A stretch of 64,000 nt of DNA, taken from a virus. A model generated the notes under the pieces. That model saw only the letters and a list, made by a program, of their open reading frames with translations, was not told the DNA's origin and made no database searches. The translations under genes were made by a program, and so were the position numbers. How positions within the stretch are numbered: the first letter of the stretch is position 1; every line of letters begins with the position of its first letter. The stretch lies in the IMG/VR virus record IMGVR_UViG_3300024983_000001, positions 136,745 to 200,744 of that record, one strand, 5' to 3'. This document shows positions 788 through 46,540 of the stretch, one piece after another.

Positions 788-1070
788 TTTGCTTAGTCGG
801 CAAATAACGGTGTATCAGCGTTACTGATATGATCGGATGCCGGATCGCCGGGGCATGGCGGGGGACTGCGCCTTATCCTGTTTCCAGCTAGCCCACCAAG
901 CTTTACGTGGTGGACCATGTCCGAACGATGGTTGAAAATGTTTCGGTGGTTGTGTCGCCTTACAGTAAGGCGGTGAGGTTCAGCTCCGGACCTCGGTTAG
1001 CGTCTAAGAGTAGACTGCTCAGAGCATAAATTACGGTGGCAGCACAAATTGTTGGTACTGCCATAAATAA
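788..1070 (+). ncRNA. candidate structured ncRNA between tRNAs
   Basis: GC-rich non-coding spacer with several hairpins (956-972, 975-994). Confidence 0.4.
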
Positions 1071-1077
1071 AGATTTT

Positions 1078-1173
1078 GGTCCTCAGCATTGGTATGCGGC
1101 GGAGTTTTATAAACTCTGGAGACTGGTCAGATAGGCTGGAACGACACGGGTTCGAATCCCTGGGGGACTACCA
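1078..1173 (+). tRNA. atypical tRNA-Ile(TAT) with long variable arm
   Basis: GGTCCTC/GGGGACT acceptor, 4-nt D loop, GGAGT-TTTATAA-ACTCT arm, bulged T stem, ACCA. Confidence 0.7.
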
Positions 1174-1183
1174 AAAAAAGAAT

Positions 1184-1400
1184 TGCAGTTGAGTCTGCTC
1201 CGATAGTACCGTGAAGACTCGTACGTAAATCTAAGCGTGCTGAGGGTGCCCACCCAAGAAACAGAATGGGTTTTAGTTTGTTTTACAGATGTTCTGACGC
1301 ACCTTGATTCCCACGGAGGGATATTGAGACTGCGGTCCCCTGGCAGGGGTGAAACTGGAGAGTGCCAGCTCTCGTGGTGGATCGGGATGTCTATAAAGTA
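1184..1400 (+). ncRNA. candidate structured ncRNA
   Basis: GCAGT(1185)/ACTGC(1329) closing stem plus internal hairpins; no credible ORF. Confidence 0.4.
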
Positions 1401-1409
1401 AATTATTAT

Positions 1410-1495
1410 AGCGGGGTAGTGAGTAGTTGGCAGCTCTCCGGCCTCATAAGCCGGCGTCTTTGACCCCGAAGGTTCGAGTCCTTCCTCCGCTTCCA
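1410..1495 (+). tRNA. tRNA with CAT anticodon (Met or Ile2), expanded variable loop
   Basis: AGCGGGG/CTCCGCT, CCGGC-CTCATAA-GCCGG, GAAGG-TTCGAGT-CCTTC, CCA. Confidence 0.85.
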
Positions 1496-1496
1496 G

Positions 1497-1641
1497 ATAT
1501 GTCGTAAAGGATTGGCCGAGATACTGGCCCTCGCGTGGTCCCACATTACAATACCCTGGTGTGGGGTAGCCCGGACGGACCGAAACCACTTAGCGGTGGG
1601 ATGAACACAAGAGTAAAGGGATTTGAGTGTTCGCGACATAT
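1497..1641 (+). ncRNA. candidate structured ncRNA (~145 nt)
   Basis: ATATGTCG/CGACATAT perfect closing stem around four hairpins. Confidence 0.5.
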
Positions 1642-1646
1642 ATTTT

Positions 1647-1720
1647 GCGGGATTGGCTCATTGGTTGAGTTCCAGCCTTCCAAGCTGGCTAAAGGAGTTC
1701 GATTCTCCTATCCCGCTCCA
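1647..1720 (+). tRNA. tRNA-Gly(TCC)
   Basis: CCAGC-CTTCCAA-GCTGG arm, canonical cloverleaf, CCA. Confidence 0.95.
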
Positions 1721-1725
1721 GTTTT

Positions 1726-1797
1726 ACCCCTGCCAGCGGACTGGGGGGACGCCTTCTAAGCGACCTACCGAGGGTTCAACTCCTTCCAGGGGTGCCA
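1726..1797 (+). tRNA. atypical tRNA-Arg(TCT)
   Basis: ACCCCTG/CAGGGGT acceptor, D stem CCAG/CTGG abutting acceptor, CTTCTAA loop, GCCA. Confidence 0.75.
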
Positions 1798-1910
1798 GAG
1801 CTGTTGTGCTCAGGCCGAGAGGCTGCTATAATAGCACCGAAGTGTTGATAGATGTGGTGGCCCGTTTATCAAACGATGTGATTATAGTTAGGGACCACCA
1901 AGTTTTCAAT

Positions 1911-2115
1911 GCGGGTGTAGCTCAGCGGTGTTTACGCATTATCCAGTAGGTTGGCCAACTGATCGGGTAGTGGGCAGGTAACGCACAGACGGTAGATTAG
2001 CATACATATTGAGAAGGAGTAACGTTCCCTTCATACGTATGCGAAGGATCGAATGTGTCAGAGCAGCTTTTTGATAAAGAGCAGGTCGGTGGTTCGAATC
2101 CATCTGCCCGTACCA
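1911..2115 (+). tRNA. tRNA-Ile(GAT) interrupted by ~128-nt insertion in D loop
   Basis: 1911-1929 joined to 2059-2115 gives a canonical 76-nt tRNA-Ile ending ACCA. Confidence 0.8.
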
Positions 2116-2127
2116 AATTTGTAGTAA

Positions 2128-2243
2128 GCGAGAGTGATGGAATGGTATACATAGGAGACTTTTTCAAGGATCTGCGAAGAGCGGGTTCTTCTTAAAATCT
2201 CCCGGCTTCGGCTATAGGGGTTCGAGTCCCCTCTCTCGCACCA
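2128..2243 (+). tRNA. tRNA-Leu(TAA) interrupted by 32-nt insertion in anticodon loop
   Basis: GCGAGAG/CTCTCGC acceptor, GGAGA/TCTCC stem, CT[32 nt]TAAAA loop, type II variable arm, ACCA. Confidence 0.8.
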
Positions 2244-2252
2244 AATACATAG

Positions 2253-2738
2253 TTATGCTTTGTTACGGCCTTTGTTCTTCCCACGATATGTAGGGGTGAG
2301 GGCGTGACAGTTAGGGCATAACAACCGTAGATTATTCAGGCGATTGTTACTCGAGTCACCATCTATATGGTCCAGTTCCACAGGGATTGGATTATCCAAC
2401 CAAGTATCATTATCACACCCGCAGCAGCGGCGCTCCAACATCCCTTCCTGTAATAAACGATTCTTCAGACGAAAGGAGTTTATCTCTATGCCACCGTTCA
2501 AGTAATCATTAATGTCTCTCTTTGGTTGCTGTGTGCCCTTGTTCCAGCCTTTGCCCTTGAAGTGAGTTGTGTCAATGCTATAGGTAGCTACCGCCTTCTC
2601 TATTATCTTGTAGTTGCCACCCCTTGCGGCGACACCCAACTTCAGCAGCGCCTGTCTCACTGAAGTGGAATTTGTAATTGCTGCCCGCAAAGTCTGTTCA
2701 TCGTAACTATGTTTCATAACATCTCCATTGGAATACAC
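2253..2738 (-). CDS. HNH homing endonuclease
   Basis: CCGC...ELDHIDGDSSNNRLNNLRLLCPNCHA; start may be 2717. Confidence 0.9.
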   Translation of the reverse strand: MYSNGDVMKHSYDEQTLRAAITNSTSVRQALLKLGVAARGGNYKIIEKAVATYSIDTTHFKGKGWNKGTQQPKRDINDYLNGGIEINSFRLKNRLLQEGMLERRCCGCDNDTWLDNPIPVELDHIDGDSSNNRLNNLRLLCPNCHALTPTYRGKNKGRNKA

Positions 2739-2894
2739 ATCGTATAGTTATTTATGATGTGTTCCTATTGGGTAATATTACCCCCAAAAAATCAACGAGT
2801 TACATCCCAATAGCCCCACAAAAATATCTTTTGTTGTCAAGGAGTTATATTCAGGGTATAATTTTAATACCTATAACTTTTAAAAGGGAAACAA

Positions 2895-3431
2895 ATGAAC
2901 ATCTTTAAACGTAAAGTTGCTTTAACCAAAGCTCCAGCCGCTGCTCGTGTTGAGACCCTCATTGGGCCCAAGACTACGATCACCGGTGACATTCGATTCG
3001 AGTCAGCTATTCGCATTGATGGAGATGTCCGTGGGAATGTCGTTCCGTCTGATCCTGTGAAGAGAGAGGTAACAGGTCCACTATCACATGTAACGATTGG
3101 TAAAGATGGAACTGTGTCCGGGGACATCGAGGCAGACAATGTCAGTATCGAGGGGGCGCTTTACGGAGAAGTCCTGGGCACCTGGGTACACCTGACAGCT
3201 ACCGCCAAAGTCTACGGAGATGTCAGCTACTACCAAACCCTCCAGGTCGATCCGGGTGCTCAAGTGGAGGGAAAGATGATCCGCATGAATTCTCTGTCAG
3301 CGATGTCTCCTTTGTCTGAAGATGAACACCAGGGTCACATTATGTCGCCTGAAGAAATTCAGGACGCCAATCTACCCCCACTACCATTATCAGGATCGGT
3401 ATACGTTTCTACCCCTATTCCTGCGGTTTAA
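2895..3431 (+). CDS. bactofilin (polymer-forming cytoskeletal protein)
   Basis: TLIGPKTTITGDI...IDGDVRGNV...IGKDGTVSGDIEADNVSIEG...GAQVEG beta-helix repeats. Confidence 0.85.
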   Translation: MNIFKRKVALTKAPAAARVETLIGPKTTITGDIRFESAIRIDGDVRGNVVPSDPVKREVTGPLSHVTIGKDGTVSGDIEADNVSIEGALYGEVLGTWVHLTATAKVYGDVSYYQTLQVDPGAQVEGKMIRMNSLSAMSPLSEDEHQGHIMSPEEIQDANLPPLPLSGSVYVSTPIPAV

Positions 3432-33521: not shown

Positions 33522-33802
33522 AAAACTTTTACGTACTTGAAAACTGGGGTGTTGTTGCAACGATTGATAATCCGTACCAAGCGCCCGAACAGGCAAAATA
33601 CAAACTGAACGGTGATGTATATGGACATAGCGAATTTGGTGAAGGTGAAAACATTACTACTTCATCAATCATGTCGGTTGATACTGATACCGGCACAGTT
33701 ATTACACGATCGGGCAGCACCTACAAATTAGGCACAACAGCACCTGAATATGAAAAACTTTACCCTAATGCCAGAGCAAGATTGTTTAAACAATTTGAAT
33801 GA
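33518..33802 (+). CDS. conserved phage hypothetical protein
   Basis: LENW...GDVYGH..F..GE.I.TS...TRSGSTYKLG. Confidence 0.75.
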   Translation: MKNFYVLENWGVVATIDNPYQAPEQAKYKLNGDVYGHSEFGEGENITTSSIMSVDTDTGTVITRSGSTYKLGTTAPEYEKLYPNARARLFKQFE

Positions 33803-34791
33803 GGCCTGTTATGAACGTATTATTTAAAACAGAATACGGATCGAGATTGTATGGCACAAATACACCAACTTCCGATACAGATTGGAAAGTAGTGTATTTG
33901 CCTGCTCTTGACGATCTGTTGGTTGGTAAGAGATTGTCTATCACGAGTAAATCTACTGGTGATGATAAGTCTCGCAATACGAGTGATGATGAAGATATTA
34001 GTTTTATCCCACTACAAATTTTTGCTAAGGATTTTTTAGCAGGACAAACCTATGCTATTGAAGTTGCGTTTGCATACTTGTCGAGGTATGACTCTACGGG
34101 ATTGTTTGGTTACTTTGTTGGTGAACTAACGAGCCGATTTTTAACATCTAATGTTAAAGCTATGGTTGGGTATGCTCTAAACCAGGCTCAAATTTATGGT
34201 GTTAAAGGAACTCGGTTAGCTACAGTGGAGAAGTTTAAAGAGCATCTTGAAACTTTGTGTGCTGATGGGTTTGCTGATGAAAAGCTAGATCTCGTTGAAA
34301 ATTGGCTTAGTGAAAATACTGACAAGTATCTTTTTTACACCACATACGAGAATCATAACGAAAAATTAGCCGCAGTTAGTTTATTGGAGAAGGTGTATCC
34401 ATTCAATATCACTGTTGGTGAAGCATACAACCGTGTCAGGAAACTTGAAGACAAATATGGCGTTCGTGCTCAGGCTGCTAAACAAGCTGACGGTGCTGAC
34501 TGGAAGGCAATGTCACACGCGCTACGCATTTTAATGCAAGCTATTGTGCTATTGGAAGAACACAAGTTGGTGTTTCCGTTACCAGCGGATGCTGTGGCAT
34601 TCTTGAAGAGTGTCAAAAATGGAAAGGTTCCATTCGAAAATGTCCAAACTGTTTTGGTTAACTGGATGCATGATTTGGATGTGGCAAAGGAAAATACAAC
34701 ATTACCTGCAAATACGGACGATCTTGAACAAGAGTTTAATACTTGGCTGATTAAATGGGTTCGGTTATTCTATACCGAATACACATGGTGA
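33799..34791 (+). CDS. nucleotidyltransferase, T4 NrdC.11 / RlaP-like
   Basis: YGSRLYGTNTPTSDTDWK; ADWKAMSHALR. Confidence 0.85.
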   Translation: MRPVMNVLFKTEYGSRLYGTNTPTSDTDWKVVYLPALDDLLVGKRLSITSKSTGDDKSRNTSDDEDISFIPLQIFAKDFLAGQTYAIEVAFAYLSRYDSTGLFGYFVGELTSRFLTSNVKAMVGYALNQAQIYGVKGTRLATVEKFKEHLETLCADGFADEKLDLVENWLSENTDKYLFYTTYENHNEKLAAVSLLEKVYPFNITVGEAYNRVRKLEDKYGVRAQAAKQADGADWKAMSHALRILMQAIVLLEEHKLVFPLPADAVAFLKSVKNGKVPFENVQTVLVNWMHDLDVAKENTTLPANTDDLEQEFNTWLIKWVRLFYTEYTW

Positions 34792-34794
34792 AAA

Positions 34795-35184
34795 ATGTCT
34801 GATTTGTTAACCCTCCGTCCTTACATGATCACAGCTATACATCAGTGGTGCTGTGATCATGATGCCAAACCAATGATAGTAATACACGCCGGTGAAGGTA
34901 CATACTTACCACCCAATCTGCGGTATGGTGATGCGACAACGTTTGATATCGGTGTTGCAGCCATTGCAGATTTACACATTGGTGAATTTGTATCATTTAA
35001 AGCGCGGTTTAGTGGAAAGGTGCAAGAGATAATGGTTCCTGTGGGTGATGTCTACGCCATATATGCAGAAGGCAAGGAAATTGGTTTTGTTTTTGATCGG
35101 GAAACTAATGAAACAACCAACGATGTAATAAATACTGAAGAACCACCACCAAAGAAAAAACCTACGCTTACTATTGTAAAATAA
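34795..35184 (+). CDS. sspB: ClpXP adaptor SspB
   Basis: RPYMITAIHQWCCD...FKARFSG...IYAE...GFVF and C-terminal PTLTIVK ClpX-binding-like tail. Confidence 0.85.
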   Translation: MSDLLTLRPYMITAIHQWCCDHDAKPMIVIHAGEGTYLPPNLRYGDATTFDIGVAAIADLHIGEFVSFKARFSGKVQEIMVPVGDVYAIYAEGKEIGFVFDRETNETTNDVINTEEPPPKKKPTLTIVK

Positions 35185-45589: not shown

Positions 45590-46540
45590 GTTTGAAATTC
45601 TCCAACTATTAGTTGGCACCGAAGTAGATAGGTGAATTTGAATCTGCTTAGTATAAGGGTCTAATGCAACGTCAGTTGTACCTTATTAAAAGCAAAAAGT
45701 TTTGGGGCATGACCCTGATAATCTTCCGTAAGGTTGAAAAAGCGAGGACGCCTACGCACTCGCGCCAGCAATGGTCAATTCATGCAAGCCCGACCCACCT
45801 CGAGAGAGGCTGATCGTTGCCAACAGCGGTCATATGGGGGAAGTTAGAGATGTGGAAAGAATGGGTGTTTACAAGCCTGAATCGAAAGAGGATGGGAACT
45901 TGTGCACGTAGAGAGTAACAGGTTGTGCTGACCTCACATCTACACAAACTAACCATCCCAAAGGTGTAAAGGGTAGTGTAATGGTCCGAACCCGCAAGTA
46001 AGGGCTGTTATGCAGGTTGATGGGGGTGTGGTGTCTCGCAAGGGATGTCATAATTCCTGAAAACTGGTTGAGTAATCGGCAGATGAAAGACATGAGGAGT
46101 GTGGTATTTTGATGTCCAAAAGATATTGAATCCACAGGAAGCGCACTTCTTGGTAGGTACAAAAGGTTAGGGTTAAAAGCCCATATAAATTTGGATTATA
46201 TTACTTAAAAACGCAAAGTCGTTTCCAGCGTTGTACTAAAGTGGCTTAATCCTCTAGTCGCGAGACAATAGAGGCGTCCGAAACTCGCAAGGTCGAAGAT
46301 GTTGAATGAAAGTTGCACGGTGGCCCGCAAGCCTTCATAGTTCGCAAGACTGACGGTATACAGAAATTCGAGTAATACAACGTGATGAGTGAACCGCCCC
46401 ACTCTAAAAAAGGCAGTCATGTTAACAGACGGTAGTGTGCGCAAGCAGCTATTGTGGATAAGAGTAGAACCGTGGGTGTCGCAGCCTATACGGATAATGA
46501 CTCGAAGGTGTTAATATATAAAGTATAATCTCAGCTTTAT
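45590..46540 (+). ncRNA. GOLLD RNA
   Basis: ~950 nt non-coding, own promoter (45553/45576), many GCAA/GAAA tetraloop hairpins, 3' blocks ACAACGTGATGAGT..CCGCC..ACTCTAAAAAAGGCAG, GGATAAGAGTAGAA, TAATCTCAGC recalled from GOLLD; flanked by tRNAs; 5' end approximate. Confidence 0.8.

Follow-up and report, generated by a model that had tools for sequence, protein, structure and literature searches.

The stretch of DNA analysed here (the window; 64,000 nucleotides) spans positions 136745–200744 of a 257-kb IMG/VR phage record that is estimated to be 78% complete. The core genes of this phage are T4-like (UvsX/RecA, gp32, UvsY and Rnl1) and its DNA is present in bioreactor and wastewater metagenomes (12 runs, all of DNA). 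With introns allowed, ARAGORN predicts 51 tRNA genes, which lie in blocks. One such block, at the start of the window, harbours a tRNA-Leu(UAA) gene on the plus strand (window 2128–2243; genome 138872–138987) and, beside it, a tRNA-Ile(GAU) gene (1911–2116, +) that was read from the sequence; the latter has a D-loop insert of ~129 nt and a weak tRNA match in its 3′ part. The same block contains two sub-threshold tRNA-like matches, at 1077–1170 (+; tRNA-Sec model, 24.3 bits) and 1726–1794 (+; tRNA model, 20.7 bits), and a bactofilin (2895–3431, +; E = 5e-22) is encoded just past it.

Several other RNA genes of this genome deserve mention. A full-length GOLLD RNA (window 46094–46537, +; 215.8 bits, E = 1e-59) lies within a tRNA block, immediately upstream of tRNA-Pro and tRNA-Gly. 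Upstream of the window, four tRNAs of 77–80 nt (genome 134631–134709, 135050–135129, 135198–135274 and 135287–135363; loci L002 and L003) have, in that order, the Leu anticodons taa, caa, tag and caa; A73 is present, but they are class-I-shaped, with a short variable region, and occur alongside normal class II tRNA-Leu. A CUA-anticodon tRNA outside the window (genome 59521–59596, −), labelled Pyl by ARAGORN, is a possible amber suppressor.

With introns allowed, ARAGORN reads window positions 2128–2243 as a tRNA-Leu(taa) with a 32-nt insert in the anticodon loop; under permissive filters, the Rfam tRNA model gives the same stretch 42.4 bits (gathering score, 29) and places a 35-nt insertion in that loop. 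A first-pass annotation of this DNA had described an otherwise perfect type II tRNA-Leu(TAA) with a 32-nt anticodon-loop insertion, and both programs, together with the alignment gap against orthologues described below, bear this out. The gene is missed by ARAGORN in its default mode (without -i) and by Rfam at gathering filters. Standard bacterial tRNA finders thus overlook insert-bearing genes, so that phage tRNA repertoires are under-counted.

The 5′ exon (2128–2161, +; tRNA positions 1–34) comprises the 5′ strand of the acceptor stem, the D arm, the 5′ strand of the anticodon stem and C32, U33 and U34. The 3′ exon (2194–2243, +) continues with A35–A38, the 3′ strand of the anticodon stem, the variable arm, the T arm, the 3′ strand of the acceptor stem, A73 and an encoded CCA. 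The acceptor stem is paired at 7/7 positions, the D stem has 3 bp, the long variable arm has a UUCG loop and the T arm is standard. In silico splicing at 34/35 gives an 84-nt class II tRNA-Leu (ARAGORN), in which the 7-bp acceptor stem, long variable arm and A73 are accompanied by a Leu anticodon in a 7-nt loop.

The insert occupies positions 2162–2193 (+), between U34 and A35. The gene has ~83% identity to the annotated tRNA-Leu of Aeromonas phage 31, and annotated tRNA-Leu genes of cultured T4-like phages (Aeromonas phage 31, Serratia phage 4S and Providencia phages) match both of its halves without the middle. Against the first two of these phages, whose tRNA-Leu(UAA) is intron-less, the alignment has a single clean gap of 32 columns within an identical anticodon stem-loop. 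In the window copy alone, repeated T residues let the insert boundaries slide by 0–3 nt leftward. Across the 19 distinct members of the family described below, a cut after U34 and before N35 is the only frame to yield a Leu anticodon in 19/19, a frame one base to the left giving AAA or GAA anticodons in 11 of them. This makes the insertion point identical to the classical group I site of trnL (CUU/.../AAAA); the earlier reading had the right locus, but had placed the insert merely near this site.

Within the insert lies a hairpin (2166–2190, +) with a 10-bp stem (2166–2175/2181–2190) and a 5-nt loop (2176–2180), leaving a 5′ flank of 4 nt and a 3′ flank of 3 nt, the CUU tail. This is the predicted minimum-free-energy fold of the insert (−12.3 kcal/mol, z = −2.9), and the inner five pairs of its stem include two U.G wobbles. 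A GAAGAG/TTCTTC hairpin proposed earlier overlaps and competes with this stem and is backed by no relative. The absence of an omega-G, by contrast, was read correctly: the last base is U in the window copy, and a terminal G is found in only 3 of the 19 family members. The motif AAGGATC does occur in both the tRNA-Ile and the tRNA-Leu inserts (at 2044 and 2166), but its sharing appears to be due to chance; the window holds nine occurrences against 6.7 expected, 28 of 100 shuffles reach nine, and relatives do not keep it. Masking of the anticodon by the U-run of the insert, also suggested previously, is predicted for the window copy: in its minimum-free-energy fold, U33 pairs with A37, U34 with A36 and the first intron U with A35 (P ~0.87–0.92 for pairing of the anticodon bases). 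The same bases are mostly unpaired in the folds predicted for three relatives (L128, L163 and L288), and by these predictions masking is a by-product of loops rich in U and A and not a conserved property.

A family of hairpin inserts in phage tRNA-Leu genes

A paralogous tRNA-Leu(UAG) gene (genome 135370–135485; ARAGORN), 3.5 kb upstream of the window gene, carries a homologous 32-nt insert. The wider family was assembled via three independent pattern routes, based on a D-arm 14-mer, on the core motif of the insert together with the T arm, and on the anticodon stem-loop only. The D-arm pattern, which is blind to the insert, retrieved dozens of phage tRNA-Leu genes; nearly all are uninterrupted, and one (L096) has a homologous 32-nt insert. 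The core-motif pattern tied to the T arm found six members in viral contigs (L096, its repeat L239, L128, L163, L238 and L322) and further members in metagenomes. A relaxed core pattern gave no additional members in viral contigs, and the core-motif pattern found none in 185,579 bacterial and archaeal GTDB species genomes, where its 17 matches were all chance occurrences without a hairpin or tRNA. The anticodon stem-loop pattern, allowing 10–40 free bases at the site, added nine more distinct phage tRNA-Leu(UAA) genes with inserts of 31–38 nt, whose hairpin sequences are unrelated to the core-motif set. As CTT and AAAA were fixed in part of the searches, these letters are conserved by construction in the members found with the anticodon stem-loop pattern.

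The resulting 19 distinct hairpin inserts are 31–38 nt long and all lie at 34/35 of phage tRNA-Leu genes. Their design is constant: a 5′ flank of 4–6 nt, a stem of 10–12 bp (10 bp in 16/19), a loop of 4–10 nt and a 3′ flank of 2–4 nt, with the 5′ flank exceeding the 3′ flank by 1–3 nt in every member. Next to the putative splice sites, each of two subfamilies conserves its own letters (UUUC-AAG...CUU-CUN in one, CUACG-GAR...YUC-AAA in the other). The distal part of the stem has no sequence in common from one subfamily to the next, yet it is always paired. In the core subfamily, which shares the core motif of the window copy, 90/90 stem cells across nine sequences are canonical pairs, although the inner five pairs are invariant partly by construction, having been demanded by the search pattern, and the finds made independently of the core motif are here only the two copies of this genome and L096. 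Compensatory changes occur at stem pairs 1, 3 and 4. The first-pass annotation had asked whether the insert might be absent or non-conserved in relatives; it recurs in them, with covariation of the hairpin.

The exons around these inserts are strongly diverged, with many substitutions in the acceptor and anticodon stems and different variable arms, and every acceptor stem is paired at 7/7 positions; core proteins of the insert-bearing phages share only ~26–35% identity. Deletion of the insert at 34/35 in silico gives a normal class II tRNA-Leu of 82–88 nt in all 19 cases (ARAGORN). Judged from these sequence comparisons, the hairpin inserts are a real, conserved and phage-restricted class of mini-intron at U34/A35 of tRNA-Leu, without a known splicing signature. 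We found no description of this tRNA-Leu hairpin-insert class in open-access papers and preprints.

Neighbouring genes, other interrupted tRNAs and candidate enzymes

An HNH homing-endonuclease gene (2253–2738, −; Pfam HNH_3, PHROG 10822, E = 1e-41) lies 9 nt downstream of the tRNA-Leu gene, and HNH homologues lie 6–62 nt from two other insert-bearing tRNA-Leu genes (L330 and L339), which carry different hairpins. Among the best 80 HNH homologue loci (L348–L427), ~30 have a tRNA-Leu(taa) within 0–130 nt, in either orientation; nearly all of these tRNA genes are intron-less, and some are only 75–77 nt long. The HNH protein was ruled out as an intron-specific partner because it adjoins intron-less tRNA-Leu genes at most loci; being mostly beside insert-less genes, the family is tied to the tRNA-Leu(UAA) gene and not to the intron. 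On the evidence of these neighbourhoods, the tRNA-Leu(UAA) gene appears to be a hot spot of endonuclease-driven exchange, and the HNH adjacency is context, not evidence of a role in splicing. The ORF that follows the twin UAG gene has no relation to HNH.

The insert of the neighbouring tRNA-Ile is a separate finding, which shows that the genome has interrupted tRNAs of more than one kind. DNA contigs of four runs were compared over window positions 1300–2800; they yielded nothing on the tRNA-Leu insert, and a contig of a related strain (run X7) matches both flanks of the tRNA-Ile insert, with 140 different letters replacing 142; past the tRNA-Ile it continues into unrelated sequence, and the window tRNA-Leu is absent there. 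Arrays of related phages contain a tRNA-Thr(UGU) gene (L303, 5325–5474, +) with a 75-nt three-hairpin insert that starts UUCA and lies at CUU|GUAA, which corresponds to 34/35, and a tRNA-Arg(UCU) gene (L310, 10285–10470, −) with a 109-nt insert. These further interrupted tRNAs suggest that the capacity to splice is a general one.

An RNA ligase of the T4 Rnl1 type (378 aa; genome 51037–52173, −), with a T4_Rnl1_C domain, is encoded by the phage; in T4, the C-terminal domain of Rnl1 targets the enzyme to tRNAs that are broken in the anticodon loop. The genes beside it gave no informative families. A cREC (cyclic-phosphate-processing receiver) protein is encoded within the tRNA block (62–442, +; Pfam PF20274, E = 1e-18). 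Such proteins are predicted to process cyclic phosphate ends (PMC7824862), and this one is a candidate end-healing factor that may be linked to the intron. A similar link is conceivable for an RlaP-like (RNA-ligase-associated Pol-beta) nucleotidyltransferase (33799–34791, +; Pfam PF10127, E = 1.6e-8); an SspB-like adaptor (34795–35184, +; Pfam E = 4e-13) is encoded directly 3′ of it. RNA-repair genes are common in jumbo phages, with or without introns (PMC7824862). Three of the five other insert-bearing phage records contain Rnl1 and only one contains cREC. G004, a complete insert-bearing genome, has cREC and RlaP without Rnl1, and the joining ligase therefore cannot always be phage Rnl1.

EndA (PF01974) had no match in the phage record, with control matches in four archaea only; RtcB was found neither in this record nor in the five other insert-bearing records, and RNase III in none of all six. 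No convincing polynucleotide kinase or Pnkp was found in the 78%-complete genome. If there is none, the cuts would need to leave a 5′-phosphate and a 3′-hydroxyl, an expectation that is drawn from an incomplete genome.

Probable removal of the insert and its relation to known tRNA introns

On balance, we lean towards the insert being an intervening sequence that is excised by a structure-specific nuclease, with the two halves rejoined by an RNA ligase. The main argument for removal from the RNA is that a dead gene would not keep intact exons across such diverged phages. The occurrence of homologous inserts in two paralogous genes (UAA and UAG) of one genome and the existence of intron-less orthologues in cultured T4-like phages also count in favour, as far as sequences can tell; counting against it, besides the enzymes that were not found, the lack of Rnl1 in G004 and the commonness of RNA-repair genes in jumbo phages, the genome has a second UAA-anticodon tRNA elsewhere that is intron-less (ARAGORN), and the interrupted gene might be dispensable. 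The gene would be transcribed as a 116-nt precursor, in which the anticodon stem is expected to lead into an internal loop of ~7 x 7 nt, with the 10-bp hairpin beyond it. A structure-specific endonuclease, of the phage or the host, would make one cut 3′ of U34 and another 5′ of A35. Held together by the cloverleaf body, the two tRNA halves would then be joined in the anticodon loop by an RNA ligase, for which the phage T4 Rnl1-type enzyme is the best candidate, with possible help from the cREC and RlaP-like proteins in preparing the ends. One of the three options offered by the first-pass annotation, an intron needing a nuclease plus a ligase, is thus the best fit to the conserved design, the intact exons and the encoded ligase, cREC and RlaP, from which we infer removal. 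As the design fits no known splicing route, these phages probably cut and rejoin the tRNA by a route that has yet to be demonstrated in bacteria and in the viruses that infect them.

A broader proposal, which we put forward tentatively, is that large T4-like phages practise protein-based tRNA splicing. A nuclease would read the one-turn (10-bp) hairpin and cut both strands of the internal loop at set distances of ~14–15 nt (5′) and 13 nt (3′) from the hairpin loop, and a phage or host ligase would reseal the tRNA; the introns would persist by splitting the DNA target of tRNA-Leu-linked homing endonucleases or by keeping the tRNA inert until phage enzymes mature it.

Upkeep of the insert mainly at the level of DNA is a less probable account but one to be taken seriously. 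In it, the tRNA-Leu(UAA) gene is the home and probable target of free-standing HNH homing endonucleases, and the hairpin, placed in anticodon-loop DNA that could not otherwise change, would break such a target or would travel with endonuclease-driven gene conversion. This account addresses why the insert exists and is compatible with splicing: the RNA would still have to be spliced, unless a dead gene is tolerated given the other UAA-reading tRNA. The HNH genes close to the window gene (9 nt) and to L330 and L339 (6–62 nt), the tRNA-Leu(taa) genes at ~30 of the best 80 HNH homologue loci, and the run X7 strain, which differs after the tRNA-Ile and is without the window tRNA-Leu, all agree with it, and there is a precedent in archaea, where introns break up the attachment sites that viruses use within tRNA genes (PMC4090602). 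However, nearly all HNH-adjacent tRNA-Leu genes are insert-less, which links the enzyme to the gene and not to the intron; several insert-bearing genes are flanked by tRNAs only, as is the case for L096; and the constant 10-bp design is left unexplained. We regard it as unlikely that the insert is never removed, in which case the 116-nt RNA would be a disabled or 'caged' tRNA that serves as a regulator or that draws off LeuRS or an anticodon nuclease of the host as a decoy or sponge, or the gene would be a pseudogene. The presence of an intron-less UAA tRNA and a UAG tRNA in the same genome is consistent with this, as is the predicted pairing of the anticodon in the window copy, and we know of no bacterial or phage enzyme that removes such inserts. 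Yet exact removal restores C32-U33-N34-36-A37-A38 and paired cloverleaf stems in 19/19, which would be needless for a decoy or a pseudogene. The decoy option raised earlier does not explain why excision should restore a perfect 7-nt loop every time; moreover, if an anticodon nuclease were to be lured, the loop ought to be exposed instead of split, and masking is not conserved.

Catalysis by RNA seems very improbable to us, whether a ribozyme encoded elsewhere acts in trans on a stripped-down group I intron or the insert and the anticodon arm together build a tiny new motif that cleaves and ligates itself. In its favour are the position of the insert, which is that of classical group I introns in tRNA-Leu, the U at −1, and the two invariant U.G wobbles in the inner stem of the core subfamily, but 32 nt compare with roughly at least 200 nt for a group I core, Rfam gave no intron or ribozyme hit either at the gathering score or, over window positions 1000–2400, at E up to 10, and the terminal G is confined to 3/19 members. 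A small ribozyme would also need its internal-loop letters conserved, and these differ between the subfamilies; GOLLD RNA, considered as a splicing partner, was not found in the five other insert-bearing records, by a search that was silent in its controls too. We give hardly any credence to an archaeal-type bulge-helix-bulge (BHB) intron cut by splicing endonuclease, even though the internal loop of ~7 x 7 nt equals a BHB numerically and, in the UUUC subfamily to which the window copy belongs, a weak central helix of three U-A pairs is conceivable between two 3-nt bulges. Such a helix is out of reach for the CUACG subfamily and for the twin UAG gene (1/4 pairs), and a fixed-register scan showed no conserved 4-bp helix, the at most 3/4 pairs in 7/10 sequences being the level of chance over nine registers; the phage has no EndA domain and the position is 34/35, not 37/38.

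Other known processing enzymes were considered and rejected. RNase III leaves staggered cuts, such that the released hairpin has a 3′ arm longer by 2 nt; the polarity of the stagger is wrong here (5′ flank longer in 19/19), and no phage RNase III was found. The insert is not tRNA-shaped, as an RNase P/Z model would have it, being a single 10-bp hairpin with no acceptor-T minihelix or terminal CCA. Excision by RNase P fails since the 5′ flank of 4–6 nt puts the base of the hairpin off the exon boundary, with no cut at the boundary.

The established view, to our knowledge, is that tRNA introns of Bacteria and their viruses are self-splicing group I introns, protein-spliced introns being a hallmark of Archaea and Eukarya. 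Group I introns have a P3–P9 core (Rfam RF00028) and a typical length of ~200 nt or more. In cyanobacteria and plastids, this same tRNA-Leu(UAA) is interrupted by a group I intron of type Leu.3Ug at the same CUU/.../AAAA point, with U at −1. In tRNA group I introns, U at −1 and a terminal G are found in 98.5%, and the tRNA-Leu(UAA) site is written CUU/a...g/AAAA (Williams 2020 preprint, doi 10.1101/2020.01.27.920355). The 32-nt insert differs in that it lacks a catalytic core, an Rfam match and a conserved terminal G, which rules out self-splicing in the manner of group I introns.

Within phages, the only published precedent that we found is that of the Lak megaphages, which have 'enigmatic' conserved tRNA anticodon-loop introns that are unclassified by Rfam and of unknown mechanism (Devoto et al. 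2019, PMC6784885, Table S6). The likeness consists of conserved anticodon-loop inserts without an Rfam class in tRNA genes of huge phages; the Lak introns, however, are longer (for example, 93 nt in tRNA-Tyr), occur in Tyr, Phe, Gly and Thr tRNAs, include one that looks tRNA-shaped, and have no sequence likeness to the hairpin. In T4, Rnl1 and Pnkp reseal tRNA-Lys after PrrC has cut it in the anticodon loop, at 33/34. Our phage likewise encodes an Rnl1 with the tRNA-specific C domain, and sealing of an anticodon-loop nick is the proposed last step, but the T4 break is host-inflicted damage at 33/34, whereas here two programmed cuts would release 32 nt, and no Pnkp was found in this genome. If the insert is spliced, Rnl1, cREC and RlaP would gain a housekeeping role beyond countering anticodon nucleases.

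Protein-spliced tRNA introns of archaea are 11–129 nt long, and none are known in bacteria according to a review (PMC4090602). Those of archaea and eukaryotes, which are BHB introns processed by EndA/TSEN with RtcB or Trl1, resemble the phage hairpin insert in being short, structured and ribozyme-free and in lying in the anticodon loop, and they provide the model of an endonuclease plus a ligase; the phage insert differs from them in its lack of a conserved BHB and of EndA, in its position at 34/35 and not 37/38, and in belonging to a bacterial virus. Splicing of this insert would thus represent an undescribed endonuclease-plus-ligase route in bacterial systems, and would bear on the relation between group I introns and those that are spliced by proteins.
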